This document shows positions 1,031 through 46,900 of a DNA stretch of 64,000 nucleotides, piece after piece; within the stretch, counting starts at the first letter, position 1; each line of letters opens with the position of its first letter. Source of the stretch: Lama guanicoe (taxonomy: Eukaryota); contig MU054823.1 of the NCBI GenBank assembly GCA_013239625.1, positions 152,305-216,304 of the forward strand. Reading direction: 5' to 3'. Under the pieces are notes generated by a model. It was given only the letters and a program-made list of their open reading frames with translations. It made no database searches and was not told the origin of the DNA. The position numbers and the translations under genes are program-made.

Positions 1031-2136
1031 CGTTCCTGACATGGGCACCGGGGGGCGGCCAGGCCCCCAGCTGTGCTGCAACAGCTGCTGAGCAAGGTGC
1101 TCAGAGCACGGGGCTGATCCCAAGGCGGGCAGCTCTGGAGGAAGGTGGAAGCCGTGGAGAGGCTGGGCTGGGACTGCCACAGGGGCCTCCCCTGGCACTG
1201 GGGGTTCTGGACCCTCGTGGGAATGAGGATGCTGGAGAGGGGCCCAGGGGCTCCCCTTGGGGACCAGCTGTTTACGAGGAAACTGGAGGGCAGAAGGGCC
1301 ACAAGACCAGCACATCCAGGTCAGAGGTCACCCTGGACACACGCTCTGCGGCCTGTGGGAGAGGCCCCTGGAAAAGACGGCCTTATCAGTGTGGCTCCTG
1401 TGACAGGAGCTTCCAGTGCTACTCGGACATGGTGAAGCACCGGAGCATTCACTCCGGGGAGAAGCCCTACGAGTGCAGCGAGTGCGGGAAGGCCTTCATC
1501 CACAGCTCGCACGTACTCCGGCACCAGCGCACCCACAGCGGAGAGAAGCCTTATGTTTGTCCAGAGTGTGGGAAGGCCTTCAGCCAGAGCTTCAACCTCA
1601 TCAGACACCAGAGAACGCACACCGGAGAGAGGCCGTATGAGTGCGCCGAGTGCGGCCGGTCCTTCAGCCAGAGGTCGGACGCGGCGAAGCACCGGAGGAT
1701 CCACACCGGGGAGAGGCTGTATGCGTGCAGCGAGTGCGGGAAGGCCTTCATCCACAGCTCAAACGTGGTCCGGCACCAGCGGACTCACCACGGGGAGAAC
1801 CCCTACGCGTGTCCAGAGTGTGGGAAGGCCTTCAGCCAGAGCTCCAACCTCATCCAGCACCAGCGGGTCCACACTGGCGAGAAGCCCTACTCCTGCCAGG
1901 AGTGCGGGCGCGCCTTCAGCCGCAGCTCCTTCCTCAGTGAGCACCGGCGCATCCACACCGGGGAGAAGCCCTACGAGTGCGGGGAGTGTGGCCGCGCCTT
2001 CAGGGCCCTGTCAGGCTTCTTCCGGCACCAGAGGATCCACACCGGGGAGAAGCCTTTCCGCTGTGCCGAGTGCGGCAGGGCCTTCCGCCTGAGCTTCCAC
2101 CTCATCCAGCACCAGCGGGTCCACGGCCCAGAGTGA
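1031..2136 (+). CDS. ZNF696: Zinc finger protein 696, last coding exon (9 C2H2 fingers); upstream exon(s) probably outside the window
   Basis: Acceptor tctcttccag ends at 1030. The ORF has 9 tandem CxxC-x12-HxxxH fingers with TGEKP-type linkers and ends in [19 protein letters not shown]. Motifs SDAAKH, HHGENPY and RALSGFFRH match human ZNF696 as recalled, and the position next to TOP1MT fits synteny. Confidence 0.92.
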
Positions 2137-7168: not shown

Positions 7169-7268
7169 TTAGAATTCAAAGTCTTCATCTGCCATGTCGA
7201 GAGCCCAGGTGAACTTCTCCCTCTGCGTCTTGTTGTAAATCTCCACGGGCACCCCAAACCTCTTACAC
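7169..7268 (-). pseudogene. TOP1MT: TOP1MT exon 14
   Basis: [32 protein letters not shown]; the expected acceptor reads caa instead of cag; one codon lost (EKI->EI). Confidence 0.9.
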
Positions 7269-7681
7269 TTGCCGGGAGGGGCAGGAAGGCGGCCAGGACA
7301 TGGCCAAAAGCCCAGGGGCATCAGGGAGGGGGCAGCTTCCCCCAGCGCAGCCCTGTGTCCTCCCAGTGGGGCTCGCAGGGAACACTGACTGGGCACACAG
7401 GCAGCCCAGCTACCGCACCCCCAGGGGGTGGGCAGCTTGGGAACAGCTCTGGGTCACCACACCACACTGGGCTGTGGTCCCCGCCCCACCCCAGCCCTCC
7501 TCTTACCCCAGGCTCTCAGGCAGAGAGGACTGACAACACAGGGCTTGGCCTCAGATGTGCCAGCCAGTTGTGTTCCTGTCACGGGAGAACCTGCACTGCA
7601 CAGGACTGGACTGGGGCCACCTGGGGAGTCCAGACCCCTCCTCAAGACTGCGAGCAGGCAGGGTGACCTGGGTCCACGCAC

Positions 7682-7830
7682 CAGGCAATGCTGATCTGAG
7701 GGTCTAGGCAGTTGAGCTTGGACGTGCCCAGGGCCACCTACTGCTCTCCTTCTTGTCCGTGGCCTGTGTGCTCAGCCTCAGGAGCCGCTCCTCCAGTCTC
7801 TCCAGCAGCCGCCCCCTCTTCTCCAGGAAG
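7682..7830 (-). pseudogene. TOP1MT: TOP1MT exon 13 (catalytic Tyr exon)
   Basis: FLEKRGRLLERLEERLLRLSTQATDKKES/-1/*VALGTSKLNCLDPQISIAW; 149 nt; TAG at 7738-7740; the catalytic Tyr codon is TGC (7708-7710). Confidence 0.92.
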
Positions 7831-8229
7831 CTAGGGAAGGAGAGGTGCTGGCACCACAGCTCTCCCTCATCCCCTAGGCAAGTTCCAGGAGGCCAGGACA
7901 CAGGGAAGGCTGCCCTCAGCATGAAGGGACCGTCCAGCCTTGACGTCACAGGAAATCACGTATGAAACACACACAGGCTACAACCAAAGAGAGCAGAGCA
8001 CAGAACCAAGCAGAAGAGCTGCCCTGTGTCAGAAAGATGCTCAGCCCTCATTCCTGATGTTTCACAGAAAAGCCGGTTTATTAAAGCCAGACCCTCCCTC
8101 CACCCTCCACGCTGGATACAGTGCCCCGCCCACAGACCCCAAGCCCACATGCACATGAACTGCAACCTTGGTCCTTCTCCCGGGAACTCGGGCTCCAAAT
8201 CCACCTGGACACAGGTAGAAGGCCTGGAG

Positions 8230-9430
8230 CAGCCCCAGCGGACATGCAGCAGAGCGCAGGGGACTCACGCGTCCTGACTTCAGCTTAGCGGAATCGAGAC
8301 CAGCGTGAGGACTGACAGACCAACAGAACAGAGCCCGGGAATAAACCAAAACATCTACCATCAGCTCACTTTTCACGGGGCCAGGACCATTCGATGCCCA
8401 AAGGATGGTCCTTTCAGCAAATGATGCTGGGAACACTGGCTGGCCACACACAAACGGACACATTCAGGCCCTTACCTTACACCATGTACAAAAACTGGCT
8501 CAAAAGGGATCAGCTTCCTAAATGCAAAAGTTGAAATGATAAAACTCTTACGAGAAGACCTAAGAATGTATCTTTACAATGTTGGGTCAGACAAGGCAGC
8601 AACAACAAAAACTAGACTCATCGAGAGTTTTACGTTTTGCGCTTGGAGGGATACCACCAAGGAAGTAAAAGGACAACACGGGACGGGAAAACGCACCTTC
8701 AGATCAGCATCTGAAAAGGTATTTGTGTCTGGGATGAATAATGGGCTCTTACAACTCAGCAGTAAAAAGACAGGGACACAAGTGAAAAACAGACAAGGGG
8801 CGGAACAGACATCTCTCCAGAGAAGACCCACAAGTGGCCAGCAAGCACAGGTCACCAGCCATCGGGGAAGCGCAAACTCCGCCCGCACTGAGACGCTGCC
8901 TCACACGCCGCCTCACACCAGCAGGGCTATAGCCAGAGAGGGAAAGGGGAAGGGAGACATGGGAACCTCTGTGCACGGCCGGCGAGACGAGCGCTGGTAC
9001 ACCCACCGCGGAGAACAGCCTGGCGCTACCAAGTGACCCAACAATTCCACTCCTTGAAAACCACAAAAATCACCGAAGCCACAAAAGTCATGCACAAAGA
9101 AAGTCACCAAAAACCCCCAAAACCCCACAAAAGTCACAAAGGGGAAACACCAGATGTCCAGATACAGGGACAGTAAAAGGTGGTCTAGCCACACGACAGG
9201 ATAGCTGACAGTCAAAAGGAGTGACGTCTGGACAGGCTGCATTACGGGGACCTTGGTGGCATCACACTAACAAAAGCCGAAGTCCACAGACGGTGGGTCC
9301 CATCTGGGTCAGGCACTGCAGGTGTTCAAGGCTGAGGGCACGGGAGGTCTGAGTCAGGACACAGGGTTTGTCGCAGGTGATGGAGAGGCTCTAAAATCGG
9401 GAGCAGCCATGGCCGCACAGCCACTCGCCC
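8230..9430 (+). mobile_element. Degenerate LINE-1 ORF2 3' part and 3'UTR in TOP1MT intron 12
   Basis: L1 phrases: cctttcagcaaatgatgctgggaacactgg, ccttaccttacaccatgtacaaaaa, gacccaacaattccactcctt. Confidence 0.75.
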
Positions 9431-9666
9431 ACAGGCTGTAAACAGTGTCCACCAGCCCTGGAGCTCGGCCACCAGGCACAGGCTGACCACCCGGTGAGGC
9501 CCACATTTGTCTCGTGCACTTCACAGTGCTCTGCTCTTTGACTCAAATGAGGCGGTCTGTATTTTTTTCAATCACAAAATATGACTAAGAAAACCAGAGA
9601 ACTGGTGAAGGAAAAGCAGGTTCACAGCCACCCCAACTGGGACGGGCTGGGCTCTCCGACACTCGC

Positions 9667-9760
9667 CTCCTGGATCTGCTGTCCCCGCTGGCTCTGTGGT
9701 CAGCCCTTGCCTTCTCCAGCTCTGCCTTGGCCTCCCCACCTGCTGCTTCTTTGCCTCGAT
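9667..9760 (-). pseudogene. TOP1MT: TOP1MT exon 12
   Basis: IEAKKQQV/-1/EAKAELEKARADHRASGDSRSR; 94 nt; donor is GC (gcgagt). Confidence 0.88.
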
Positions 9761-10097
9761 CTGCAGAGGGGGCCCAGTCAGGGCTGCTCCTGCCCCACCC
9801 AGTCAGGGTGCTGAGTGCTAGCCCTGATCGGCCACTCCTTGGCCAGGGGACAGGGTGAGGCCAAGAGGTCCCAGACATACCCCCTGCTCCACTGACCTCC
9901 TTCCTGGACTAGAGGCCTTTGCTCACCAGAAAGGCACATCCTTACCCACTCCCTCCCCTCAGGGAAACCGCCTCCCAGCCAGCACCTGGCCTGGGCAGCC
10001 CTGATTGCTCAAGCACCTCTGAGGGCCATGTAGCCCCAGCGAGGCTGGCACCCAGAGGCCCTCCCACTGTGAGCAGCTGGCCAGGCCAACTGTGCAC

Positions 10098-10223
10098 CTT
10101 CAACCAGAGTCTGCACTGACTTCTTGAAGGTCTTGGGAGTTGCCCGCTGATGGTTGCAGAGAACAGCAACAGCCCGGTTCGCACGGTTATAAGACAGGAT
10201 CTTATGGGCTACGCTGTCTTCAG
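10098..10223 (-). pseudogene. TOP1MT: TOP1MT exon 11
   Basis: [40 protein letters not shown]/-2/K; 126 nt; catalytic His (CNHQ) retained. Confidence 0.9.
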
Positions 10224-10781
10224 CTGAGAAGCAGGGGTGTGTTGGGAGCAGCAGGCACTGGGCAAGTCACTGCGGGAGCCCCGCCCCGTGTCAGGAGGGG
10301 CCTCGGTCAGTACCCGGTCCAAGGAGTCCACACAGGGCAGAGCTGGGGCCTCCCCAGAACCCCCCCACCCTGGCACGAGCTCAGTAGGACAGCGTCAAGG
10401 GGCCCAGAGGTCGGGTGAGCTTGGGCAGCTGGGCAGTGGTGAGGAGGGTCCCGCACATGAGGAGGGACACGCAGAGCTGGGTTGGTGCTTCACAGATGAC
10501 TGCAGAGGAGAAGACACAGCCTGGGCAGGGGCCTGACTGACTGCGGGGCTGACGCGTGGAGAAGGGGGTGCTCAGCAGGGGTGGCCGAGCAAGGAGCAGC
10601 AAGCCCTGGGGGAAGGCTCAGCCTCGGGTCCTGAGGGCCCCTCCCCCTTCCTGCTGGGCTCAAACCTGGACCGTCCCTTTTGGGCCAGGCAAGCCCCACT
10701 CTGCCCCTAGACACCGGCCACAATACATCCTCCGACCAACCAAGCAGCCAGGCACCAGCCCCAGGCTGGGGACCCACTCAC

Positions 10782-10897
10782 CTCTGGTCAGTGCCCGCAG
10801 CTGCCCCTGCAAGGTTGACGCTGGCATTGTAGGTCCGGAACACCTTGGCCGTCAGGCCGTCCATCAGGTCCTGCAGGTGCTTGTTCAGGCTGGCAGT
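10782..10897 (-). pseudogene. TOP1MT: TOP1MT exon 10
   Basis: [27 protein letters not shown]/+1/[11 protein letters not shown]; acceptor position reads cgt (no AG); 1-nt insertion at about 10815. Confidence 0.9.
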
Positions 10898-11154
10898 ACG
10901 CACACGCCGGGAAGATGGGTCTCAAAACGTGTTCCTTTAGGGCAGCTCCACAACACTTCCCAGCACCCTGACCACGCCACCAGAGGGGCTTTAGCCGGTG
11001 GTCAGACAGATGGCCCTCAGCCTTCCTATTGCAGACTCAACGCTCACACTCGCCCCAGCTCATCTGACTGACCATTCTGGACACAAATGGGCTGAGCTGC
11101 GCTGGCAGTCCCTGGGTCACCCCATCAGCACTGCCCTGAGGCCCCGGGGCTTAC

Positions 11155-11223
11155 AGTCAGTCTGTCGAAGAGCTCATCCCCAGGCTCCTTGTTCTCCACG
11201 AACAGCTGCAGATTCTTGTACAC
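11155..11223 (-). pseudogene. TOP1MT: TOP1MT exon 9 (intact)
   Basis: cag|VYKNLQLFVENKEPGDELFDRLT|gtaagc; 69 nt. Confidence 0.92.
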
Positions 11224-12429
11224 CTGTGGCAGGAAGAGGAACCCCTTAGAAAGACATGACTGGCCCACAGGCAGAAGCAGCCTCTCCTGGGCGCCCAAGG
11301 GGCGTCTGCATTCGGAGGACAGGGATCAGGCTCCTCCCAGGGAGGTGGTCTGCACACCTCGGAGTGTCCAGGCTGTGGAGAAGAGGCTGCACCCTCTCCC
11401 CCTGCACACCTGCCCCTTCCTCCAGGTGACCCCAAGTCTGCAGTCAGACCTGCCTGACACTGCAGGGCCTCAGAGGACCCTCCCCTGACCTGCACAGGCC
11501 AGTCCTACTGCGAGAAGGCTCTCGGCGGCCATGCTGCACATCCACTTTCAAGTCAGTCCTTTGAGGGGAGCACAAACGTCCTCCCGGCTCCCCTCTGCCT
11601 GGGCCCCTCTTGGCAGCCAGCTCCGCATGTGCCCCACCAGGCTGGACACCAAGTGCCCAGCTACAGAGTGACCAGCATAGCTCCTTCAGCACCATGTCCC
11701 CTAACTTTCCTGAACCGAGTGGCTTAGTGCCTTAGGAAAGTGCTCCACCATCCTCTGCCCAGTGAGGACAGCGAGGAGGCCCGGCCACCCCAGGGAGGGG
11801 CCTCACCTGCTCACAGCCCTGTGGTTCCCTGACCCCAGCCTCCAGCCTCCAGCCTCCAGCCTGAGACATAAGTGCCCATTTGTGAGGCTCCCAGTCTGAG
11901 CAGCCAAAACTCAGACACCTGACAAGGCTCCTCTGCTACTCAACTCCTCCCGCCCCGCAGCAGGCCCAGCGGCTCCCTACTCATTCACACCCTTGATCAG
12001 ATTTCAGAGGCCCAGGCACGCTGGGCACTCTGGGGCGCAGGGTGCTCCCGCCTGAGTGGATGTTTCTGTCACCTTCGACAGTCTCCCTAAACTTCCCGTT
12101 CTGTGTTCCGGAGGCCATGTCTGCCTATGAAGTGCATGTAAGTTGCCAGCAGTCAATACTGGGCCCACCCTCACTGCTGTGACATGGTGCCCACCCAGAC
12201 TGGGGCTGGGAGACTGTCATTCTGGGGCTCACCACTCCAGAAGGGGGGTGTTCCCCAAATTCTGATTTCCCTTCAGACCCCTCTGCAAACCAACGGGGGC
12301 CAGGTAGGTGTCAGCACAGCAGCCAGCCAGCAGGCTTGACCCCGAACCTCACCATTCAGAGACCCGGGACACCGCCAGAGTTACCACTGCGAGCCGCGTG
12401 CCCAGTGGGCCAGAAGACCCTTTCCAGGT

Positions 12430-12795
12430 GTGCTGGGGTGAAGAGTGTCCCCCTAAATTCACATCTTTCCCAGAACCTCAGAAGGTGACTTTTGGAAATA
12501 GTCTTTGCAGATGCCATTAACTAAGACCAGGTCGCCGTTGGGTAGGGTGGGACCTAATCCAATACAACTGAATCCTTGTGAGAGACAGACACACGGAGGA
12601 AGATGGCCAGTGGGGAGCAGACACCGTGGTGATGCAGCCTCAAGCCCAGAGACTGAGGGTCACCACCACCTCCAGACACCTGGAAGGGTTCTCCCCAGAA
12701 CTGCAGAGGGCGCACGGCCCTGTCACCTCCTGCTCTCGGAATCCAGGCCTCCAGAAGGACATGTTGTGGCCCAATTACAGCAGCCACCCTAACCC
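12430..12795 (+). mobile_element. MaLR solo LTR (MLT1-like)
   Basis: tgtcccc..aaattcac..cagaacctcagaaggtgacttttggaaatagtctttgcagatg...agggtgggacctaatccaat...ttacagcagcc, typical MLT1 LTR phrases. Confidence 0.75.
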
Positions 12796-13018
12796 ACCAG
12801 GAGAGCAGTGACGCTGGTGCCTAGGAAGGCGGGTTCAGTCCAGCCTAGGGGCGTGACTCCCCATGCACACTGACTCACCCCAGCAAGGCCTCCCTCCCTG
12901 CCACACAGGATGGGACAGACAGTGAGCTGGGACAGACAGGCTACAAGTCTCTGCCCACAGCTACCACGGGAAGACTACAGAAACCACTACCACCTTCACC
13001 ACCCACACCGGCACTGAC

Positions 13019-13204
13019 AGGCTTCCCTACTGGCACTCAGTTGTGGTAGTGGATCGAGTCCTTCCCCAGGAAGTCGAACATCACAACGTATGGGCAGCTG
13101 TCAGCCTCCAGGTGCAGCTGGACGTGCTCCACGCGGAGGGAGCAGCAGCCCACCGCGTCCGCCATCTCGCCCTCCTCCTTCTCGTGCCTGGCTCACAGCG
13201 GCAG
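13019..13204 (-). pseudogene. TOP1MT: TOP1MT exon 8 (catalytic Arg/Lys exon)
   Basis: [60 protein letters not shown]; 186 nt; TGA at 13193-13195 (the LALR catalytic Arg) and at 13037-13039; acceptor reads cgg. Confidence 0.93.
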
Positions 13205-13425
13205 CCGGGGGGCAGGGCCGGGCACACACGGCAGGTGCACAGGCAGGCAAGTACCACACGCACACATGCATATGGATACATACACACATGTAACTGGCGT
13301 GCACACACAGGCCCTTTCACCTGCCCAAGGCTCTGGCTGGGGACACAGAAGCCCCGCCGTCCCCTCCGCTGCCCTGCCTGCCCAACCAGGTCTGTGCAAC
13401 CGACAGAGCCTCTGGGACCCCACAC

Positions 13426-13567
13426 CTTGTCGATGAAATAAAGGGCCACGGCACGTCTCGCTTTCATCTCGTGAGACTTCCAGTCGGCCCAGTAGTGAGA
13501 ACGGATCTTGCCCACCACCCCTTTCAGGCGCCGAGCCACCTCGTACTTTTCCCAGTCTCTCTCCCTC
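13426..13567 (-). pseudogene. TOP1MT: TOP1MT exon 7
   Basis: [46 protein letters not shown]; 142 nt between tag and gtgtgg (one extra nt at the start, one codon lost). Confidence 0.9.
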
Positions 13568-13869
13568 CTAAGTGAAGAGAACAAGTAGCAAAGAAATGCA
13601 CAGCACTCCTGCCAACAGGGAACTGCCGACCCTCGGCCCAGCCCGCTCTCACCTTCGCGGCCCAGGGCCGGGAGCAGACACCAAACTCAGTGAGGCTTAC
13701 GGTGGATGTAAATGTAATTCCTTGCTTTTAAAGACAAATGGCCACTGGACACAATATGATTTCAAAATTGGCTTGTTCACGCCTACGATCTGAGAGAACC
13801 CCTGCCAAAGCGCCCGGCCTGAGCTGAGGGAGGGGCTCCCGGGGGCAGCACAGGCCGAGCTGGGCTCAC

Positions 13870-13994
13870 CTTCAGCTTGGAGCTGGGTTTCAGCATGATG
13901 TACTTGGTGGAGTTCTGGACGTTCTCCGTCCACGCCGCCAGCCACGTGACCGTGCGGTTGGTGACCTGCCGGGGGCTTGGGTATTCTTGAGTCC
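13870..13994 (-). pseudogene. TOP1MT: TOP1MT exon 6
   Basis: DSRIPKPPAGHQ/-20/TVTWLAAWTENVQNSTKYIMLKPSSKLK; 125 nt; the WKEVRSDN segment is deleted. Confidence 0.9.
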
Positions 13995-14650
13995 CTGCAG
14001 CAGGAAAGTGACCCAAACCCAGCAGTTCAAGACCCTGCTCCCTGAAACGTGAGCCAGGCGCCCCCACCTCCCATGCTGTGCTGGCCTAGGCACAGGGGCC
14101 CAGCGTTGGCCAGGGTCAGCCCGAGTCTGTTCGAGCACTGCCTCCTCGCCTCTTAGCTCCTGCTTCGCAGGCATGACAGGCCTGTTCAGGGCGGCCCCCA
14201 TGTGTGGAGGCCAGGGTGGCCATCCCCAGGGCCACATGCATCTCAGGAGTCTCAGCAGCTCCTGGGACACCTCCGCTGACCCCGCCAGGCAGCATCCACG
14301 CAGCAGAGGGACAGAAGCTCCTGCTGGAGCACAGCCCGCCAGCACAAGCGGGAACTCTCTTCCCACACGTTCCAGACACTCGCGTGTTACTAGATTATCC
14401 CAGGAACTTGAAATGCGGAAAACTGTCGAGAGCATGCAGACACTCTCCTGCTGGGGTAAAACTCCAGCCGGGGGCAGAGTGGTGAGGGCTGGTTCAGCTA
14501 ACAGCACACAGGCTGCAGCACAGGCGTCCACCCTGGGGAGAGGCGCCCTCCCGCCCAGCCCTCAGAGCCCTGCGTAACAGCAACACACTCGGCAACAGGC
14601 CCCCCGCCCCCGGTGAGGAGCAGGGTTGCACGCGAGTGGCCTGCACACAC

Positions 14651-14832
14651 CCACTGCAGCTGATGGTCACGCCCTCCAGCATGACCCTCCTCTTCAGCAT
14701 CCCCATCTCAGGGTGGTTGCCACGGCCCCGGAACAGCCCTGGGGGCTCAGTCTTAAAACTGCCCATCTTCTCTCGGTGCCTAAAATACAGTAGCCAAACT
14801 CTGGCTGAAGCTCCTCAGCCTCTTCTTTGAGC
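14651..14832 (-). pseudogene. TOP1MT: TOP1MT exon 5
   Basis: [17 protein letters not shown]/-4/[42 protein letters not shown]; the acceptor AG and first bases are missing. Confidence 0.9.
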
Positions 14833-15264
14833 CACAGATGTTAGTGGTAGGGGGACAGGGTGGGCCTGATGCCCCAGTGTGCTGGGTTAGCCGGGCTCGG
14901 GAGCCCCGTGAGGACCAGCAGGCCAAGGGCTGGGCAGGTGCCCAGTCCCTGTGGTCTGGGCACTTACACCACGGAGAGTGAACTGATCCTCCCACTGTAT
15001 CACACGGCAGGTTCCCTTCCCACGTGCCCTGGGTAGACCCAGCATTTTTAAACACATTGAGATGCACGTAACTTGGAAGTGTCCGAGACCACGATGGGGC
15101 CAGATCAGAGGCCCCTCCACCACATCTCCGCGGCTCAACCAGAAGAATCCCACAGGGATGGCGATCCTGACAGGATGGGGTCTTCGGCTCCGGCCCCACG
15201 CACACCAGCAGCCTCCCACTGCGGCCCAGGAGCCCAGGCCAGACTGGGCCCTGCACAGCCTGAC

Positions 15265-15387
15265 CTGCTTCTCCTCCCTGGACAGGGCTTTCCGGGCGGC
15301 GGTCCTGTCCGCAAAGTACCTGTGGATCTCAGTGAAGTCACAGTTGTCCAGGCGCTGGATTACTTTCCTCTCTTATGCCGTCATCTC
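15265..15387 (-). pseudogene. TOP1MT: TOP1MT exon 4
   Basis: [40 protein letters not shown]; 123 nt; first premature stop TAA at 15373-15375. Confidence 0.93.
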
Positions 15388-16186
15388 CTGCACCAGAGCC
15401 AGACATGCCTCTCAGCATCTATTGTGGGCATTGGGGACCTCCCCACCACAGCCAGGCCCTCCACGGGACACGGTGACATCGCAGAAGCCAGAGGAACAGA
15501 ACTGAGTGCACCAAGTCCGTCCAGTCCAGCAGCCTTTGTAGTTGTCTCCCAGAGGATGGCCTTTCCAGCAGGTGGCCAGGTCCCAGTGGCCTTCTGAGTT
15601 GGGCCACACAGCCACATCTGAAGACCAGCCCCACTGGCTGCCGTGGGGCCTGCAGACCATGTCCAGCACCGAGGGGTCCTCAGTCACTCTTCAGGAAGAT
15701 GACCTGCCACTCCCCACACAGTAGGAGCGCACACGACAGCCACACTGCAGAATTGCTGGGTGGTCCCCAACCCAGCCATACGTGTAGCCCATGACCCCAC
15801 CATCCTGCCCTCAGTCCCTGCAGAGGGGTGGGCACACAGCCACATGACCCCTTGTCAGAACCCTAGTGCCCGTCAGCTGAGAAGTGGACACGTGCTGTGC
15901 TGGCGTCCTGCTGAGAGCAGCCCTGAAGGGGCCTGGGGCATGCCTTCTCCAGCCAAGTCCACAGGTATAGACAAGGTGGGTGCAGATGCGCACATAACCC
16001 AGTTTTTTTAAATGAGAAAAAACTAGTTAACTATAACCTTATCTTCAAAGAGCTTCCCAACAAATGTTTGTTTCCTGGGAGCCTAAAATTACCCCTCCCG
16101 GCCCCCTATGGCAGGCAGGCGACTGCCAGCCCCAGGCCAAGCTGTGAAATGGGGCCACTGAGAAACTGAGGCCATGTAGCACTCAC

Positions 16187-16308
16187 CTTCCGCCAGCCAC
16201 TGAAGAAGTTGTTCTGGAAAACTTCCTTTGCTGTGCACTCGTGATCCAACATTTTCCCATAAAACGTGGTGACCTCCTCTGCTGCTAAACTCAACTTGAC
16301 AGGCTTTC
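16187..16308 (-). pseudogene. TOP1MT: TOP1MT exon 3 (frame intact)
   Basis: cag|[41 protein letters not shown]|gtgagt; 122 nt. Confidence 0.93.
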
Positions 16309-17838
16309 CTGGAGGCATCAGGAGACACATGGTTCAGGGAGCTGGCACGGTTTGCCCTCCAGCACACAGAATTCTGCTCTTTAAATCACAGTTACACATG
16401 CTGCCAAGAGCAAGGAATTCTGGCTTTAATCAAGAAGCACGTTCTCAATTTAAGAAAACGACTACACTTGCGAACACTTGCTACACAGGTGTTCACCCCA
16501 GATTATGGGCTGGGCCCCGTGGAAAGTGCCAGCGGCCACAACTGCTCACACGTGTCCTGCTTTAACACTGTTTTGCTAGTGTGCTCATGTGGAAGCTTAC
16601 AGCTCAACAACACGTGCAGTTTTAGAACACGCATCACCACATAATTATAGAAGCAGAACAACAGTTAAGGTTTTAAAGCAAAAACGTGTGAACTGTAGGA
16701 GCTGCGCCCTCGTTTGCCCAGCTGCTTTCAACATTTCATTCCAAGGATCGGCGTGTATTAGAGGCGGCTCAACGGAGAGCAGGTGGTCCAGCAAAGCAGG
16801 GTGAAAGCCGATGTGGGTGAGGGGGGTTCACCATGGAGTGCTCTCAACTGCTGTGTTTGAAAATATTCGTAACAAAATGTTGGAAACGTAACTATGCAGT
16901 CGTTTGGTAACAAGGAAAAGGGCATTTGTGATAAAACAGCAGTTCTTCCCAAAACTAGCTTCTCGGGAGAACAGAGAACTGGGGCAGCAGCCAAGGCCCG
17001 AGGGGCTCAGCTCCTGCCCTGTGAGCCCCTCCCCACGCAGGGCCACCCAGGCCGCCCACTCCCCACTCCTGTCCCAGGCCGCGAGCTGCCCTCTGGAGCG
17101 GCGGAGGCAGTGGGGCCTGTGCCTACCAGGCACCCATGCAGCGCAGGGCACCTTCAGAAGCCTTGCTCAAGCACGGACGCAGCAAGTGGGGGGAAACGGG
17201 CCAAACTAGCAGCACAAAACCAAGCAGAAGCTCCTGCCCAAGGGGTGGAGAGGATGAGGGCCGAGGCAGGGCAGTGAGGGCAGGTGATTTGGCACCCACA
17301 GGCCCGCAGTAACCCGCTCAGTTGCTTGTTAGGAAGTGAATGTGGGAGCCCACAGGCAACGTGCTCCAATACCCAGGGGCCCAGAGACTCAGGCCCTCAC
17401 CCAGAGGGCCAGTCCCCAAGGCAGGGCCACGGGGGCACAGCAGGAAGGCAAGGGTGGAAGAACCCAGCTGGGTAAGTTGGAGCACACCACCTGGTCCGTC
17501 TTGCGCTGCATGCATCCCCGCCCCCAGCAGCCCTTGGAAACTCCGCACTCCCAGGGTTCTGGGGGGCGCCAGGCTGCAGCTGCTGGAGCACAGAGGCCCC
17601 GTGATCTCTCCAGGAACCTCGGGACTGCAGACTTGGAGGCTGCCTAGCCTGGATCCTGAGCAAAGGTCAACTGTCCCCCAGGTGCACAGGCCTCCCAGAC
17701 TTCCGTGGGCCAGCTCCCCCAGGGCGCCGAGGTGGGAGAGCCTCCGAGGGAGCAGGAGGCCCAGGGGACCACTAGTCACGGGGTGCAGAGGCGGCTCCTT
17801 GGCCCCTGGTCCCTCGGGCCTCGGGGAGCTGTTCTCAC

Positions 17839-17951
17839 CGCTGTAGTAGAAGCGAACTCCAGCAGGAAGGGGCTCGGACGGGGACGCAAAGCACGGTCCT
17901 CTGTGCTCCAACTGCATCCACTTCATGCCGCCTGGTCTATTCTCTTCCCAC
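17839..17951 (-). pseudogene. TOP1MT: TOP1MT exon 2 (frame intact, phase-2 start)
   Basis: cctccag|G-WEENRPGGMKWMQLEHRGPCFASPSEPLPAGVRFYYSG|gtgaga; 113 nt; conserved GPYFAPPYEPLP is degraded to GPCFASPSEPLP. Confidence 0.93.
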
Positions 17952-20549: not shown

Positions 20550-21020
20550 ACAAAGGGAAAAACCGCGGGGAAGAAACCCCCGCGTGGGGGCCCGGGGGAG
20601 CTGGGGTGAGACGGGGCGGGGCTCGCACGCCCTGGGTCAGGAAACGGCAAGTGCTGCGTCTGCGGTCTCAGGCCACACCCCGAGAGCAAGGCCAGCGCTC
20701 CCGGTGCGCTCCCATCCCGCCCGGCGCCCTCGGCCACCTTACCCAGCTGGGCTGACGACCCTCCCCCGGGGCTGGGGGCTTTGGGGGCGTCGGCGCTCAT
20801 CCGCTCTCCCGCCTCAGGAGCCCGGGGAGCCAGAACCTGCCCCCCACCAGCAAAGCGCCCCGCCCCCAGCCCTCACCGCAGGGCCAGCCCCGCCCCGAAG
20901 GCCCCGCCCCCGAAGGCCCCACGTGGATGCGGACGCGGCTGGCCGCGAGGAGAGCCGGTCGGGGCCGCCGGGCAGGGGCTCCTCGGTGGGGGCGTCTTCC
21001 AGGCGGCACACGGAGGCACA
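20550..21020. promoter_or_regulatory. CpG island / GC-box promoter, probable proximal (mitochondrial isoform) TOP1MT promoter
   Basis: High CpG density and several ccccgcccc GC boxes, about 2.8 kb upstream of exon 2. Confidence 0.65.
20743..20853 (-). pseudogene. TOP1MT: Probable decayed TOP1MT exon 1 (mitochondrial targeting peptide)
   Basis: Strong donor TGG|gtaagg at 20742. The phase-2 frame ends ERRRPQSPQPRGRVVSPAG but has an upstream TGA; LLVGGRFWLPGLLRR (presequence-like) lies in another frame starting at TTG. The only ATG (20800) is out of phase with exon 2. Confidence 0.45.
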
Positions 21021-24645: not shown

Positions 24646-25471
24646 CATCTCCACCTGCCTTCTCCCGTGTCCGGCCCTTTGGTGGCCTCGCGGTCCCTTT
24701 TCCCGTCTCTCTCTCCGGATGCTTCACCAGCCGGCTCCTCCTCCTCTTGGCCCCCGTCCTGCTCCGGCCCACACCAGCTCCTCTCCTCTTTCCATGGCTT
24801 CTCCCGCTGCACGTCCTTTCCAAGAGGGCCGTGTCCACACCGCGGGCATCCACACCGCACTGCCCTCTCTGCTTGTGCATCCGTCCCCGGCTCTCCATCC
24901 GGCTCTCCATCTCCTTGTCTCCATTCCTTTGCTTCTGGAGCTCCTGCCCCACCTGCGTTGTCCCTCTTCCTTCTTTTGTCTTTTCTGGAAACCGCAGTCT
25001 CTGCTGCGGACTCGTTACCTGCTCCGAATTTTTCATTTTCTTCTTTCTTAGTTTCTTCAGCCCACGTGTCTTCCCCCTCCTCATCTTCACCCTGTGACTG
25101 CCTCCTCGCCACCAAGCCTCCCACCCCTCCAGTGTGGCCAGCTTCCCTGTCGGGGGCGCTTCTCTGGCCACGGGCTGCGCACCCTCCCTGCTGGCTCCCA
25201 GCCCGCAGCCCCTCTGTGCAGCCGCCCTCCTGCCGCAGCCGTGCGGCCCCCTCCGGTCCCCGCCACCCTTCTGCAGCATCCATGTCCTGGTCTGTATCCC
25301 AGTGCCTTTCTTCTCAAGCCCTTCCTGCCTTTTCTCTTCCAATTTTCTCTCTTTATTTTTCTTCCGTCTGCCTTTCACTTTCACCCCGTCCTTTCCTTGG
25401 CTTGCATCCACGAGCTCCTCCTCTCCCACTCCCGGGGTGCTGGCCCGCATAGTCCTGTCCCCAGAGGACAC
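24646..25471 (-). pseudogene. Large upstream exon of a putative long TOP1MT isoform (charged N-terminal region ending GRWRW)
   Basis: Acceptor gttcaccag at 25472 and donor TG|gtatgt at 24645. Purine-rich and K/E/R-rich. The last codons GGC AGG TGG AGA TG join the leading G of exon 2. The 5' part reads best in a different frame, implying a frameshift or stops at 25353 and 25314. Confidence 0.7.
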
Positions 25472-25985
25472 CTGGTGAACACCAAGCGCCATCTTCCTCT
25501 GGTCTCCAGGGCCTCAGAACCGTGCACAGGAGAGAGAACACCATGAGTGGGCCACACGCCACAGGCAGTGCCCACAGGGTCACACACCCGCAGTGACCAC
25601 TTCACTCGCCACATCCTGCTCTGCCCTCCCCTGCAGGGGCTGCCATCAGAGGATCACCCACACCCAGACCCTGCATTTCTACTGCCTCTGATGGAGCTTT
25701 GGAAAACGGCTTGTCTCAGCCCTTGTGGCCATGGCAGGAGGGGAACCCAGGACAGTGCACTCGCCTCAGGGCACAAATACCTCTGGGGAAGGGCATGGGA
25801 GGAGGAGCTATTCCGATGCCACCCCCCCACCCCCGCTAGGCTCCTCAGACTCGTTTCACAATAAATTCCTATCAGACCATTAAGACATAAGGCCATTCGT
25901 TGTCTTCTCGTATTTTCAAGAACAAACATCACGCAAGCAAGAATGCCTACAGTCGGTCATGAACATCGCACCTGAGGATGCTTAC

Positions 25986-26052
25986 CTGGCCTTTTTTCTT
26001 GGATGTCTTTTCGTGGTTATTCGTCTTCACTGGCTTGGTGGTCTGTGCAGAT
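25986..26052 (-). pseudogene. Putative upstream exon (SAQTTKPVKTNNHEKTSKKKGQ)
   Basis: tttgtattctag|67 nt|CAG gtaagc; only the phase 2->0 frame is open, and it is Lys-rich. Confidence 0.55.
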
Positions 26053-28624: not shown

Positions 28625-28744
28625 CTGGTATCTTTTGAAACAGAGAATGTACTTTCTTCTTTCAGGTACAGCTACAAGTCCCAGGAAAATACAGAGTTCA
28701 CTTACTCAGGAACATCTCTGTGTGGCAATAAATGGTTAGAACTT
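28625..28744 (-). pseudogene. Putative upstream exon with two in-frame stops
   Basis: gtcttaacag|120 nt|CAG gtaagg; SSNHLLPHRDVPE*VNSVFSWDL*LYLKEESTFSVSKDT; phase 2->2. Confidence 0.45.
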
Positions 28745-29170: not shown

Positions 29171-29270
29171 CTGGTCTTTCCCACATCTTCCCTGATTCTT
29201 TTGGTTTGGCTCCTTCACTTTCTGTTTCTTTGGGTTTTCCAGCTTCAGCTGGTCAGTATTCCCCCTCTTC
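29171..29270 (-). pseudogene. Putative upstream exon carrying an NLS (KRGNTDQLKLENPKKQKVKEPNQKNQGRCGKDQ)
   Basis: tttctttcactaaag|100 nt|CAG gtttga; phase 2->0, open, Lys-rich. Confidence 0.6.
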
Positions 29271-29618
29271 CTTTAGTGAAAGAAATATTTTTTATTGAAA
29301 TATAGCAATATTGTAATGTGATTACCAAGGGTGGAAATGCAAAGCCAACACAGATATGGTGTCTCTGACTTGAAGAAACACACACTGCACAGAAAAGTGA
29401 CAGGACCGCTGGCCTCTCTCCTCTCCAGCCCGACACCAGGCTCCTTGCTCCACTCCACCTGGCTCGTGTCCCTGTGCACACGCAACCCCCAGCGCATCTT
29501 CCACAAGTGCAGGGATGGGATCAGTTAGACCAGGCTGTTTCAAGACCTAGACCGGCTCATTAATACAAATCACGATTCGCCCAGCAAAGGTCACTTCTTC
29601 CCAAAACTATTCAGTTAC

Positions 29619-29717
29619 CTTGTGAGGGCAGTCTTATCCTTTACCAAGAACGCCTTCAAATCGGACACCTGACCGTCTCCCATCGCCTCTTCTTTATCTG
29701 TAGTTGTCTGTCTCCAA
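29619..29717 (-). pseudogene. Putative upstream exon with candidate start codon (MGDGQVSDLKAFLVKDKTALTR)
   Basis: tgctttcttacag|99 nt|AAG gtaact; ATG at 29683 in gcgATGg Kozak context; ends phase 2, in frame with the next exon. Confidence 0.6.
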
Positions 29718-30049: not shown

Positions 30050-30166
30050 ATATTGGAAGGGGAGGTAATTAAATTTATCCATTTTGATGGAGGTACTGGG
30101 GATTGAATCCAGGACCTCATGCATGATAAGTGCGCTCTCTACCACTGAGCTATAACCTCCCTCGCA
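30050..30166 (-). mobile_element. tRNA-derived SINE, camelid Vic-1-like, with a perfect 15-bp TSD
   Basis: Minus strand reads ggaggttatagctcagtggtagag...cctggattcaatccccagtacctcc; acatcatctttatat is repeated at 30035-30049 and 30167-30181. Confidence 0.88.
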
Positions 30167-30379
30167 ACATCATCTTTATATTTTTAAATATTACAATTAA
30201 GTATCTTGAATGTAGGCATAAACTCCACTAAAAATAACCTGTTTGCCAATTCTAGCTGAGTACTTATGGCTTTAGATACATCAGATCAAAAGGAAAACAA
30301 ACAAAAAAGCTGTAAACTCGCGGTGTTACAAGAGGAAGGCAGATGGAGCTCAGGAAAGGGGGCAGTGCCCCCACGACGA

Positions 30380-30960
30380 GGACGACCCAGGCCCTGGGGT
30401 AGGCCGGTGCGAGAGATTCGGGTTCCAGGGCGGCGCCCCGGCCGAGCCCGGGGACAGAGGGGTTCGCGCGCGTGTGAGCGCGGGTCCAGGCCCTTTTCCG
30501 AGGCGGCCGGCCAGGCCAGCGCCCGAGCAGGAGGCCCCGCGGGGCCCGAGCAGAGGAGGGGGCTTCGGGGAAACGACAGGCTCCGGACCCCGCCGCGCCG
30601 CCCTCGGGCCGCCAAGGCGGGTTCGCGCATGCGCGGGCGCGGCCAGCGAGGTCGGGGAAGGGACACCCTAACCCAGGCGGGGAGGCAGAGCTGGGCCCTC
30701 GCGGAGTGGCGAGGGCGGGTAGGGGGCGCCCAGGGCCAGGACACCCCCCTAGAGGGTCCCTCTCCGGGTCTGCGAAGCTTGGCTTCGTGGGCTCCCGCGG
30801 GCCGAGGCAGACCTCACTGGGCTGGGGTGCGCCCCAGACCCAGGCGTGGCGGTGCTCTGGGCGGCTTTGAATGCTGAATAGTGAAGTGTGAGAAACGCTC
30901 CCGTAGCAATCTGCTCAGCGTGGGCTGATCCGGGGTCCACGGGCCAGCTGACGAGCGCCC
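30380..30960. promoter_or_regulatory. CpG island promoter with NRF1 palindrome GCGCATGCGC (30625-30634)
   Basis: Dense CpG and a perfect NRF1 consensus, immediately upstream of the minus-strand exon chain. Confidence 0.75.
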
Positions 30961-31239
30961 ACTAGGGACGTTGGGTATGCGAGTGATTTCATTAAGCTGC
31001 GCTCTAGGCCGGAGGCTGGGGTGCGAGGCAAGCAAGGCATGTTCTTCGGTGTCCAGAAGGTGGGGAGCATCCTTAACACACAGGGCCTGTGCTAGAAGCA
31101 CGTTGGGGTCTGGGGAGGCGGTCGCAGGAGAAGACACTCAAGCTGAGTCTGGAAAGTTGAGTAGATGTTGGCCAGGACGGCCTGGTAGAGTGGACCCCAG
31201 ACAGAGAGTTGTGCGGACGGAGGCACGGCACAGCGTGTG

Positions 31240-40900: not shown

Positions 40901-43900
40901 GATGCGGACTGGCGCCGAGAACCTGTACAGGTGAGTGCTGGGCACGTGGGGCACCTACTGCCATCCCTGACCCTTGACTCTTAGGAGAGTGGTGCCGTGT
41001 TCCCAGAGGCCCCTGCGAACCAGGCCCCCGGGTGATGGGGGCAGGGCAGTGACCCAGGTGGGTGCCTTCTCTTGTGTCCACATGTGAGTCCATGACTGTG
41101 GCCTCCGGTTGGGCTCCCAGGAGGCAGGGCTGCACCTCCCACCAGGGTCTAGGGTGGCCGTGCTGCTCAGCTGAGATCCTCACAGATAACCCAGGCCCCC
41201 ACCTTGGTGGCCCTCACTGGCAGGGGTCAGCTCAGGGCCAGCTGAGTTCCATGCTGGGCTGGACCCGGGCTGGAGGGGTGTCCACACCGGTGTGCAGTGT
41301 GGGAGCCTCTGATATGCTCATGGTGACCAGCAAGGGCACTTTCCACTGAGCTATGGAAGGTTACAGGCGTCCTGAGGTTGAGGACCTGGGAAATGGTCCT
41401 CCAGACGTGGAGGCAGCTCCACCTTAGAGCACGTGAGCAGCGTGTGTGCTCTGACCTCCACACGCACCCGTTCTATGGGTGATGGCCCGAGGCCCAGCCT
41501 GCTCCAGCCCCAGTCGGTGAGAGCAGAGCCAGCTCCAGGATGAGGCTCTGCTGGGCCCAGCAGGCCCCTCTTTCCCTTAGCAGCCCTGCCTTCCTGGAGG
41601 CCGCCGGCCCCTCTGGCAGGCACAGAGAGGGTCTGATCCCCGCGCCTCCAAGGAAGTGGGCTTCCAGTCGCTGTGGAGAGCAGGAGTGGGCTGTGTCCAG
41701 GGGGAGTGAGAGGTGGTGGAGGGCATTTATGTCCTGGAAGTCCTAGGTCTGAGGAGATGCACCTGGGCCAGAGTCACAGCGTACACGTGAGGACAGGAAT
41801 CTGCATGAACTACGGAGGGACACAGGAAAGGGGAAGTCATCTGGTGGGCCCTGGACCCTGCTGCTGTGCCCCACCCCAGGGGTCTGGGGTTGCAGTGAAG
41901 CCCAGGGGCCTGTGGTCCCCCAGCAGGGCTAGGGCTTCACTGCAGCCTGGCCTCCCCCAGAGCCACCAGCAATGCCCAGGTCAGGGAGACGGTGGCCCTG
42001 GAGCTGAGCTACGTCAACTCCAGCCTGCAGCTGCTAAAGGAGGAGCTGGAGGGACTGGATGGCAGCATGGATGCCGACCAACCCGAGAGGTGTGTGTCCA
42101 TGTGTGCATGTGCATGTGTGGGAGGACGCGACCCAGGACAGCATGGTGGGGGCCCCTGTGTACAAGGATGCCAGCCGGGCGGCCCCTGTGGGATGTGATG
42201 TGTGTGGGTGTGCGGGCACATGTATCAGAATCAGAGGAGTGGAGTGCCATACCTAGCAGGAGCAGTAGCGGGTGCACTCCTTGGCCGCTGGGGACGGCAG
42301 AGTCCATCCAGCCCGAGTCCGGACTCGATGCTTCTTGTTCTAGTGAAGGCGTCACCGTCCCCATGATCCCCCTGGGGCTGAAGGAGACCAAGCAGCTGGA
42401 CTGGGCCACACCCCTGAAGGTGAGTGCTGGCCTGTGAGCCCCCCGGGGTCGGGGGCATTTTAGAGGCTTCCTGGTCCAGGCGTCTCACCGAGCGGACGAA
42501 GACTCTGAGGCCCAGAGGGAAGAAGGGTCTGACTTGGAGCCGCCTGGCCTCCCCAGGCTGGAGGGGATTTTGATGGGGTGGACTTGGCAGAGGAGCACAC
42601 CGTAGAAGCCCCAAGATGGCTATAGGGTCCCCTGACTCTTGCTCTGAGGGTCCCGCTGGCTGGGGGCTGCCCCCTCCAGTCAGAACCTGTGCTGAGAAAA
42701 CCCACGGGTTCCTGGGGTCCCTGTGGGGTCTCACAAGCCAGGCCGCCCCGAGCAGCTTGCCACTGCCTGCCAGGTCGGGTGGAAAGGTGCTTTGACTCTT
42801 GGCTTCAGTGTCCCTTCCTGTGGAGTGACAGACAGCACTTGTTCGTGGGGATTATTAAGGGAAATCGGGTAGAAACGTTACCAAGCTTCTGGGCCCCACA
42901 TCTACGGTGCTGGCAGGGCCCACGTCAGGGTGCGTGCCGGCCCTTCTCCAGGGGCCCCGCGCCTGCCTCTGCTGTGGGTCTTCACCACTGCTGGGCTGGG
43001 AGGTCCCAGGGAAGCCCAGTGCCTGTCCCCCCGAACCAGGAGCTGATCTCGGGGCACTTCGGAGAGGATGGGACTTCCTATGAGGCTGAAATCAGGGAGC
43101 TGGAGGAGCTGCGGCAGGTGAGTGGGCTCCTCCCAGTCTGTAGGTGAGAGGCCGAGGCGCAGTCAGGGACGAAGCAAGGGAGCTGGGTGTTGACGTTCAC
43201 ACTGCAGCAGTCCCCACCTGGGACAGTAGGGAGACTGGCGCCCCAGGGCTCTGTGTACGCTGGGGAGTTCCATCCTCACGGGACGCTGCTGGCCCTTTGG
43301 GAGTGGCTGCTCCCTGCCTGTCCCCTCCCCAGGGATCCTGTCTGGGCCTTGCGCCCAGTGCCGACCCTCCCCTGGGCCCTACAGTCTCCTGGAGTGGCAT
43401 GTGTGGTCACAGCAGCCCTGGGGAGGGCAGGTGTGACCCTGTTGACCCCTAGACCCCGGAGTTCTCCCAGGGGGGCTCCAGGGTGGTGTGCATGCCGTGG
43501 GTGGGTTGGGGTGGTGGGACCCAGCGACTCCTGCCCAGCAGGCTGTGCGGACCCCCAGCCGGAGCGAGGCAGGCCTGGAGCTGCTCACGGCCTACTACAA
43601 CCAGCTCTGCTTCCTGGAGGCGCGCTTCGTCACCCCTGCCAGGAGCCTGGGGCTGCTTTTCCACTGGTAGGGCGGGGGTGGCCAGGTGCCCTGGGGCCAC
43701 CTTGGAGACCCCTGGCTTCTTGCTGTCGGAACTCTGCCCAGCCTGACCCCACCCCACAGGTATGACTCGCTGACAGGTGTTCCAGCCCAGCAGCAGGCCC
43801 TGGCCTTCGAGAAGGGCAGTGTGCTCTTCAACATCGGCGCTCTCCACACCCAGATTGGGGCTCGCCAGGACCGCTCCTGCCCCGGGGGCACCGGCCGTGC

Positions 43901-46900
43901 TGTCGAGGCCTTTCAGAGGGCTGCTGGTGAGGCTGCCCAGACCCCAGCCCCGCGGCTGTGCCAGCACACTCCTTGCTTCTAGGCCCGTGCAGCAGGGGCC
44001 CTTCTCTGTGGTCAGAGCTGAGGGGATGAGCAGGACGGCCCGCCACCCTTGGAGCTCAGCACGCACAGGCCCTCTCTGAGGCGTGCAGAGGGTGCTCCCC
44101 AACCATGGGTGGGGGGCACAGGTGGGGGCAGCCCTGCTGCACCACTGTGAGCTCCCCTCCCCCTCCGCAGGGGCCTTCGGCCTCCTGAGAGAGAACTTCT
44201 CCCATGCGCCCAGCCCCGACATGAGCCCCACTTCGCTCTCCATGCTGGAGCAGCTCATGACTGCCCAGGCCCAGGAGTGTGTCTTCGAGGGCCTCTCCTT
44301 GCAGGCCCCCACGGACCCCTACGACTGCCTGGCCCAGCTGCACCTGGCCCAGGAAGCCGCCCAGGTGAGCACGGGAGCCCCTGTCCCTGGGAGACAGACC
44401 AGGCTGCTGTGGCTCAGCAGGCAGCAGGGCCTGGGTTGGGGGTGCCAGCTGGAGCTGAGCGGGCAGAGCTGAGGTCTGGGCAAGGAGGGGCAGAGTGCTG
44501 TGGCCATGTCTCCTTCTGTTGACTCCCAAAGCCAGCTGTTGTCCTGTGCCTTGTGGGGTTGATCAGGACCCCAGGGTCCTGGGTCCCTGCTTCTGTGGCA
44601 ACACCCATCAAAGCAGTAGCTGGGGACCTCGACCCTAGAGCTCAGCTGAGTGTGAGGCGGAGCGGCTGGGACTTTGGCGGGGGTGGGTGGAGGCCCCACG
44701 GTGAGGAGAGGCTGGGGCCAAGGCTGCTGGGCTGGTCCTGGTGTCCCGCAAGAGGCCCCATGTCCCGCCATGTGCACCAGCAGGTGGCGGCCGAGTACCG
44801 GCTGGTGCACCAGACCATGGCCCAGCCGCCCGTCCAAGACTACGTGCCCTTCCCCTGGACCACCCTGGTGCACGTGAAGGCTGAGTACTTCCGCGCCCTG
44901 GCGCACTACCACGCAGCCCTGGCCCTGTGTGACGGCCCCTGTGAGTGCCGCGCCCACCTGCCCCTGTGCCGGCTGGGCCCGGCCAGTGGCTCATGGCTCT
45001 CTCTGACCCCTAGTGGTAGCCGAGGCGGAGCTCCCAGCCGTTGAGCAGGTCTTTCTCGGGCTCTCAGCCTCCTCTGCACCCAGGGGCCCGGCGCTGCCCC
45101 AGGAGCGGGAGGAGAGCAGGAAGCTGGGTGAGGCGCCGGGAGGAGGGTCCTGGGGCCCCTGCAGGGGTGGGAGGTGAATGACCCACCCCACCCTGTCATT
45201 CGCAGTCCTGGTGTCCCGGCACTGGTGGGCGATGCCCAGAGCAGGGGCCCAAGCCTTGTGGGCAGCGAGCGTTATAGGCAGGTGGGGGCACACCTGAGAA
45301 GCAGCTCTTCCCTGGCTCAGCTCTTCCCACTGGAAGCCCTCACCTGCTCTCCTCTTGCTGCACCTGGGGGCGGGGGGAGCTGGGGCCCCACACAGCGTGT
45401 GACAGCTTGGTCCCCTGCAGGCAAGGCCCACCTGAAGCGGGCCATCCTGGGTCAGGAGGAGGCACTGCGGCTGCATGCCGTGTGCCGGGCCCTGCGCAGG
45501 GTGGACCTGCTGCAAGCCGTGCTGGCCCAGGCGCTGCAGCGCTCACTGGCCAAGTACTCGGAGCTCGACCTCGAGGATGACTTTTTCGAGACCACTGAGG
45601 CCCCTGACATCCAGCGTGAGCAGCCAGGCCCCCAGGGGTGGGTGTGTCCTGGCCGGAGGGCTGACTGGGTGGAGGCCCCTGCCATCAGCTCCCAGGAGCT
45701 GCGGGCCCTGGAAGGAGGAGCAGGCCGGCTGGGGGAAGCCCAGGCCAACAGTGGGCTCGCTCCCTGGTCCCTCCATGCCGCCCCATCCCTGCACCTGTTT
45801 CCTGTCCCATGGGAAGCTGCCACCTGGGAGACAGACACCACAGGCCAGATGTCCAGGGGGAGCTGAGGGCCCAGGAACCACATGGGGCTCCTCCTGGTAG
45901 TGAGGGGGCAGTTGGGCCAAGGAGGTCTGCAGAGGGTCCGGTGTGCTCAGCCTGCACCTTGGGTCACCCAGTGTGCTCTGGCCAAGCTGCATCCAGCTGC
46001 GTCCCTGAGTTCTGGGGCATGAGCCTTGGGCTGAGCCCTGCCCTCCCTTCACCTTCACCCTTCCAGCTAAGACACATCAGAGGCCGAAGGCCAGGGCACC
46101 CAGCTTCTCTCGGGTGAAGGTGGCTGACATCTTCCACCGGCTGGTGAGCACCCCTCCCAGGCCACCCCCACCTCTCTCCGTGTTTTCAGCAGGCCCACGA
46201 CGGGTGGCCACGCCCCGCCCCTCTGCAGACCCCACTGGTTTCTGTCCCAGGGTGTACACTGGGGCGAGGGTGCTACGGGCCAGGGCTCCGCCAGATGGCG
46301 GCAGCCCAGCCAAGCCTCTGACCTCTGACCCTCCCAGGGGCCCCTGTCCGTGTTCTCAGCCAAGAACCGCTGGCGGCTGGTGGGGCCCATCCACGTGGCC
46401 CGCGGAGAGGGGGGCTTTGGCTTCACGCTGCGGGGAGACTCGCCCGTCCTCATTGCTGCGGTTGTGCCGGGGGGCCAGGCTGCGGTAAGGGCCCCCTGCC
46501 CAGGGCCGAATGCATGAAGGGGACGGTGGGTCTGCAGCTGGGGTGCAGGGGTGCCTGCAAGACCCCCGACTGACCTGTCTCCCTGCAGGCCGCCGGCCTG
46601 AAGGAGGGGGACTACATCGTGTCTGTAAATGGGCAGCCGTGCCGGTGGTGGAAGCACGCAGAGGTGGTGGCCCAGCTGAAGGGCATGGGTGACGAGGGCG
46701 TTAGCCTGCAGGTGGTGACGCTGCTGCCCAGTGTGGAGCCGCCCGGCCTGGTGAGCCCCAGGGCCCTGGGAGGGGGTACCCCCCTCCTGTCCCACCCCGG
46801 CCCTGGGCCTTCTGCCGGGCCCGAACATCCCCAGGTGCTAACAGGGCCTTGGGATGGCCTTCCAGGCAAGCAGCCACCTGTGCCACAGCCTCCACCAGGC

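Follow-up and report, generated by a model that had tools for sequence, protein, structure and literature searches.

A broken TOP1MT gene and its neighbours

The window, i.e. the whole stretch of 64,000 nucleotides of the Lama guanicoe assembly analysed here, carries on its minus strand a type IB topoisomerase gene with 13 core exons, framed by two genes on the plus strand:

850-2133, plus strand: C2H2 zinc-finger gene, the neighbour on one side
7172..17951, minus strand: TOP1MT core, 13 exons, broken
41899-44469, plus strand: HR1/BRO1 (rhophilin-like / RHPN1-like) gene, the neighbour on the other side

This gene order fits ZNF696-TOP1MT-RHPN1, which we take to be the names of the three genes. 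The locus represents the TOP1MT orthologue: its core is nearest to TOP1MT and comprises 13 exons, the neighbours are conserved, and TOP1 lies elsewhere. Genome searches returned two topoisomerase IB loci in the guanaco, the one in the window and TOP1 on another contig. For one core exon, the best protein match among those listed is dromedary TOP1MT (85% identity), followed by whales and pigs. Compared with human TOP1MT (601 aa, 14 exons), the window gene is alike in its 13 core exons, in its nearest proteins, all of which are TOP1MT, and in its neighbours, but it has six additional exons upstream, serving a long charged N-terminal domain, and it is dead.

The core is interrupted by three stops (at about 15375, 13195 and 13039) and five frameshifts (at about 14778, 13959, 10815, 9737 and 7737), six in total with the one in the upstream exon E, and the codon of the catalytic tyrosine reads cysteine near 7710. 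An active type IB topoisomerase, with open frame and catalytic tyrosine, is thus not encoded here, and the window TOP1MT is a pseudogene. It is a unitary one, with no intact copy found elsewhere in the searched assembly, which may itself be incomplete. The dromedary models have three in-frame deletions in common with the window, and their core exons are skipped or shifted, but they lack the window's exon-4 stop and exon-5 frameshift, and no shared stop could be shown. Shared deletions combined with private lesions indicate that the decay likely began before the guanaco and dromedary lineages split.

Upstream exons and the bipartite motif

The exons addressed by the initial annotation precede the core on the minus strand, and belong to the following set:

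30268..30690, minus strand: exon 1 of the long transcript, in a CpG island, from an RNA contig, 5' end approximate
29619..29717, minus strand: exon A, 99 nt, phase 2 to 2, with an ATG at 29683-29681
29171..29270, minus strand: exon B, 100 nt, phase 2 to 0, carrying the whole bipartite motif
29219..29269, minus strand: predicted bipartite nuclear localisation signal (NLS), KR-x11-KKQK, within exon B
28625..28671, minus strand: exon C, 47 nt, open
25986..26052, minus strand: exon D, 67 nt, open
24646..25519, minus strand: exon E, large and charged, in the long N-terminal domain, with a frameshift near 25136

The 55-residue peptide originally proposed for the two exons A and B could be reproduced from the ATG at 29683-29681, the donor after 29619, the acceptor before 29270 and the donor after 29171. 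The A-B splice itself, in which a 348-nt intron (29618-29271) with canonical ends is skipped, is borne out by RNA contigs in three of four runs (X1, X2, X8). This RNA stems from three studies of a related species that differs by ~4-5% in introns (likeness was set to 92), and the shorter side of the joint measures 26 letters, so that the joint taken by itself carries modest weight; the pig, donkey, colugo and tamandua proteins have a junction that agrees with it. That these were the first two exons, as had been assumed, does not hold. Exon A has its own acceptor at 29717, and because an RNA contig (X2 record 12, 100 letters on the short side) covering 30543-30268 plus ~156 further letters joins 29717 to the upstream exon ending at 30268, exons A and B are the second and third, behind an exon in a CpG island (o/e 0.79 at 30501-31000). 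The exon-1 donor (30267-30266) reads AT (ATAAGT) rather than GT in the window, while the relative's RNA splices there, and the AT is either a point change or an assembly error. The start codon in exon A stands in a strong context, with G at -3 and +4, and the donkey, colugo, rhino and beluga models begin at this methionine. Two minor features were noted in this region, a high-copy short repeat in intron 1 (about 30082-30161), very deep in all four RNA runs and presumably a tRNA-derived SINE, and a GC palindrome at 30625-30634 in the upstream CpG island, which fits an NRF1 site.

Alignment with the beluga long form (P0159, 974 aa) gave identities of 17/22 for exon A, 29/34 for B, 11/14 for C, 19/28 for D and 178/281 for E. 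For exon E, the splice-site listing holds no AG at the acceptor position inferred from the orthologues, and no Pfam domain was detected in the N-terminal domains of P0159 and P0110. These alignments identify exons A-E as the part of a long TOP1MT isoform that codes for its N-terminal domain.

In two of the four runs of the relative's RNA, exon B is spliced to an acceptor at 28717, where the window letters give a stop after three codons; the orthologous B-to-C joint was seen in none of the runs, one of which (X9) is free of any joint, and contigs of this kind cannot show absence. One might accordingly ask whether camelid exons A and B have been selected as a 58-residue nuclear micropeptide ending at this stop. 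Exons A-D are free of stops and frameshifts, and A and B together are identical to the beluga protein at 45 of 55 positions, which, along with the use of the 28717 acceptor, would suit such a product. A lesion-free run of 95 codons is, however, expected by chance (P=0.36), and divergence from the relative does not differ significantly between exons and introns (5/199 versus about 37/789, Fisher P=0.24), so that neither statistic lends it support. The exon-1 donor is AT in the window, and a stop far upstream of many junctions makes a transcript a likely target of decay. The micropeptide is hence very improbable, and was rejected.

The claim that a bipartite NLS is formed across the splice junction had to be abandoned. 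Both basic clusters, KR (29269-29264) and KKQK (29230-29219), reside in exon B, which fits the consensus on its own, and the junction contributes a single split arginine codon, that of the first Arg in RKR. The fit to the nucleoplasmin-type consensus as such is sound, with two adjacent basic residues (KR), a spacer of 11 residues and KKQK as K(K/R)x(K/R). Nucleoplasmin-type signals work via importin-alpha, and the exon-B motif resembles them further in the proline preceding the second cluster; it differs in being predicted from sequence alone, and in a pseudogene. The strict pattern arose in 1.0% of 20,000 peptide shuffles and has three matches among the 127,996 residues of the window's six frames. 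That the motif matches by chance, in lysine-rich sequence and after a wrongly guessed splice, can be given next to no credence. The loose pattern does occur in 4.5% of shuffles, and two further AG acceptors follow 4 and 6 nt downstream of that of exon B, but the splice is present in RNA and in orthologue proteins and the motif is conserved at the same place, by which this reading is largely refuted.

Among nine therian orthologues the upstream cluster is basic in 8-9 of 9, and the pig, whose second cluster reads KKRN, misses the strict motif by one residue. Mean identity is 0.89 in the motif columns versus 0.56 in the others (P=0.004 on random columns), a figure obtained from nine related and hence not independent sequences, and the non-basic columns N26, G52 and Q55 are equally invariant. 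The exon-B motif can be taken as real and conserved and as a predicted NLS, encoded by a genuine upstream exon, albeit one that belongs to a pseudogene.

Long TOP1MT forms and their kinship with TOP1

Database models of long TOP1MT forms, about 930-1400 aa in length, extend from newt to beluga, and such proteins are already deposited in RefSeq and UniRef, labelled 'mitochondrial'. Long open N-terminal domains of about 330-840 aa were found in 32 tetrapod entries, mostly predicted models, from therians, monotremes, turtles, alligator, birds, lizards, frog and a newt cluster, the latter with four RNA-assembled sequences of about 1400 aa from Logan assemblies. A rhino model omits exon B and some horse models begin inside it, and the donkey N-terminus, used as a homologue query, gave four matches among 41 candidates. 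With regard to fishes, a 14-row tree built without jawed-vertebrate TOP1 did not place P0316 together with TOP1MT, and the search of 50% clusters was dominated by the core.

Such models raise the question of whether the upstream exons served mainly as a 5' leader for short, truncated TOP1MT products, with the long frame vestigial and rarely or never translated. None of 81 named primate and none of 32 named rodent entries has an N-terminal domain of more than 102 residues, yet in mouse podocytes and sperm upstream promoters are in use (bioRxiv 10.1101/2025.01.17.633678); many whale and pig models begin at internal Met codons, and the camelid transcript is still spliced despite the dead gene. 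On the other hand, frames of hundreds of codons stand open in every tetrapod class sampled, and the same exon E is broken in the window pseudogene, which makes a mere leader distinctly unlikely.

Sixteen of the 32 entries have the strict motif within their first 75 residues, and 18 have the loose one. The expectation that the basic clusters be conserved in orthologues came true for therians (strict motif in 9/11) and turtles (6/6), and the newt has the strict motif as well. It failed for birds (0/7), alligator and both monotreme models, and the strict motif is likewise absent from three of three lizards (one of them with a loose match), frog, pig and colugo (loose only). For beluga, three equids, tamandua, koala and devil, no strict match besides it exists in the whole domain of 410-580 residues; turtles have 2-4 strict matches per long domain. 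In birds, alligator and most lizards the long domain persists without the exon-B motif, mostly with other matches.

These last findings, taken together with the multiple turtle matches, would suit the view that the long isoform is nuclear but imported via other basic patches, with RKR preserved by splice signals and lysine richness. The RKR codons do overlap splice signals, the first Arg being the split donor codon and KR lying in the purine-rich flank of the acceptor. However, from newt to beluga the two clusters stay 11-12 residues apart and the second one, which lies 40 nt into the exon, is retained; in most therians, moreover, there is no strict match other than the exon-B motif. Import through other patches is therefore judged unlikely, if worth keeping in mind.

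The relation to nuclear TOP1 was assessed on the guanaco's own gene, in which the exons upstream of the core measure 96, 76 and 113 nt and presumably correspond to exons 6-8:

L001 8880-8975: TOP1 N-terminal exon
L001 9972 onward: TOP1 N-terminal exon
L002 to about 3234: TOP1 N-terminal exon

A profile built from the 55 residues that precede the core in nine non-mammal long forms scored 49.0 bits on these exons, a value reached by none of 1000 shuffles. The end of exon E in non-mammal TOP1MT is thus homologous to the NLS-bearing exons of TOP1, which argues that the long form keeps a TOP1-type N-terminus. The resemblance of exons A and B to TOP1 is marginal (profile 21.0 bits, 3% of shuffles; pairwise P=0.11); the phases agree with those of TOP1 exons 6 and 7 (2-2, 2-0), and the junction is placed differently relative to KR. 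In both proteins a charged domain meets the core at the same phase-2 junction, but its length is about 330-840 aa in the TOP1MT long form versus about 210 in TOP1. TOP1 has two strict KR-x10/11-KKxK matches, both straddling splice junctions, whereas the exon-B match of TOP1MT crosses none. Upon renumbering onto Table 3 of PMC10081982, the two TOP1 matches overlap NLS-II and NLS-III as tabulated there, and the 55-residue stretch before the core overlaps NLS-III of the same table.

Taken together, exons A and B are probably (at roughly 0.68) coding parts of an old, long isoform of TOP1MT, one that is likely nuclear, with the exon-B motif as its predicted importin-alpha signal, in a gene that is dead in the guanaco. 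Transcription would start from the upstream CpG-island promoter and yield exon 1-A-B-C-D-E-core, with the 1-A and A-B joints taken from the relative's RNA and the remaining joins from orthologue models. A presequence-core form would come from a second promoter, situated in the intron that precedes the core, as suggested by models of other species and the human TOP1MT literature. The long form would have retained a TOP1-type charged N-terminal domain since the TOP1/TOP1MT duplication. In therians, the TOP1-like motif at the end of this domain appears to have decayed, which would leave the exon-B motif, usually the sole strict match, as the likely carrier of import. The camelid lineage, as the lesions show, has lost the gene altogether. 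Translation of the long form, importin-alpha import via the exon-B motif, a nuclear role and, where both first exons remain, promoter choice are what we infer from this arrangement.

Published work bears on the nuclear role. In PMC2770673, TOP1 with an added presequence remained largely nuclear owing to its N-terminal NLSs, and human TOP1MT forced into the nucleus bound chromosomes weakly; the latter cuts against a strong nuclear role, although the construct was made without the long domain. Human TOP1MT-eGFP was exclusively mitochondrial for the construct expressed (PMC9638942). Where the upstream exons stay open, as in beluga, horses, marsupials, turtles and a newt, the gene probably has a nuclear product too, which studies of human and mouse would have overlooked. 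One step further, TOP1MT would be a two-compartment gene across tetrapods, with a second nuclear topoisomerase I of 930-1400 residues, mitochondrial only in primates and rodents, nuclear only in pig and beluga after cetartiodactyls lost the presequence exon, and absent from camelids, whose mitochondrial DNA would be left without a type IB topoisomerase. This wider scheme is tentative, and the odds are rather against it holding in full.

Proposed promoter choice and probable lineage-specific losses

The proposal that promoter choice switched TOP1MT between a presequence form and an NLS form fares differently by species. Both N-termini occur in database models of tamandua, platypus and the newt cluster, and their presence in one species is what a model of alternative first exons needs. 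In the guanaco the switch cannot operate, because the gene is dead and protein alignment gave no recognisable presequence exon, in that eight presequences aligned to the intron before the core all stayed within shuffle range. A probable remnant was nevertheless located:

20743..20850, minus strand: probable presequence first-exon relic, in a second CpG island (o/e 0.71, 20.5-21 kb)

The relic matches the N-terminus of the gray whale model P0255 with a score of 128 (shuffle maximum 67), contains an in-frame stop and has no ATG where the gray whale model has one. A presequence profile scored 1.2-6.1 bits in the window's three frames (P 0.15-0.76), whereas the whale model reached 11.9 bits, itself a weak resemblance at P=0.02. 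In both the window and the gray whale the relic frame reaches the usual donor out of phase; the gray whale model attains the core in frame via a later donor, which goes against a clean loss of the presequence. Among 59 cetartiodactyl entries listed in cluster look-ups, none combines a short presequence with the core, and six are long.

Dual targeting from a single gene by alternative promoters is known from UNG1/UNG2. For TOP3A it is achieved by alternative starts (PMC9638942). TOP1MT would resemble both in that a single catalytic core is preceded either by a presequence or by a nuclear N-terminus, but differ from them in that its forms appear to have been lost separately in different mammal lineages. 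In print, TOP1MT is short and exclusively mitochondrial (PMC10081982, PMC6514783), and it is treated as mitochondrial in PMC2770673, PMC6514783, PMC12718117 and PMC9638942. The literature searched, with the founding papers Zhang 2001, 2004 and 2007 outside its coverage, mentions neither a long or nuclear TOP1MT isoform nor a loss in camelids. In mouse podocytes and sperm cells, upstream Top1mt promoters replace the first coding exon, according to bioRxiv 10.1101/2025.01.17.633678, whose Supplementary Note 6 may bear on the novelty of the upstream exons.

What matters here is an overlooked long isoform along with its lineage-specific losses, and not the junction-spanning signal, which is the uninteresting part. 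If the main reading is true, the TOP1/TOP1MT duplication would have to be reread, in that TOP1MT would have held on to a nuclear-type N-terminus and either acquired or retained an alternative presequence exon, and the upstream Top1mt promoters in mouse sperm and podocytes could be explained as relics. Lineages with one form, both or none would then be natural experiments on the purpose of each form, with camelids as natural knock-outs.

Some observations on other lineages may be added. Ruminant, carnivoran, bat and afrotherian TOP1MT were absent among the 120 matches listed in either of two protein searches (cluster representatives), in which whales, pigs, horses, primates and rodents are present, and it is possible that this reflects a wider loss of the gene. 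The human, chimpanzee and macaque models (P0282, P0283, P0294) begin with a segment that may equal exon D in another frame (26011-25928), a weak match at 39% identity and E=2.9. Two Logan sequences ranking among Old World monkeys (P0189, P0192; 620 aa) carry homologues of exons B and C directly on the core, exon B aligning to window positions 29257-29171 and the first basic cluster being reduced to KG. Primates thus appear to transcribe relics of exons B and C.
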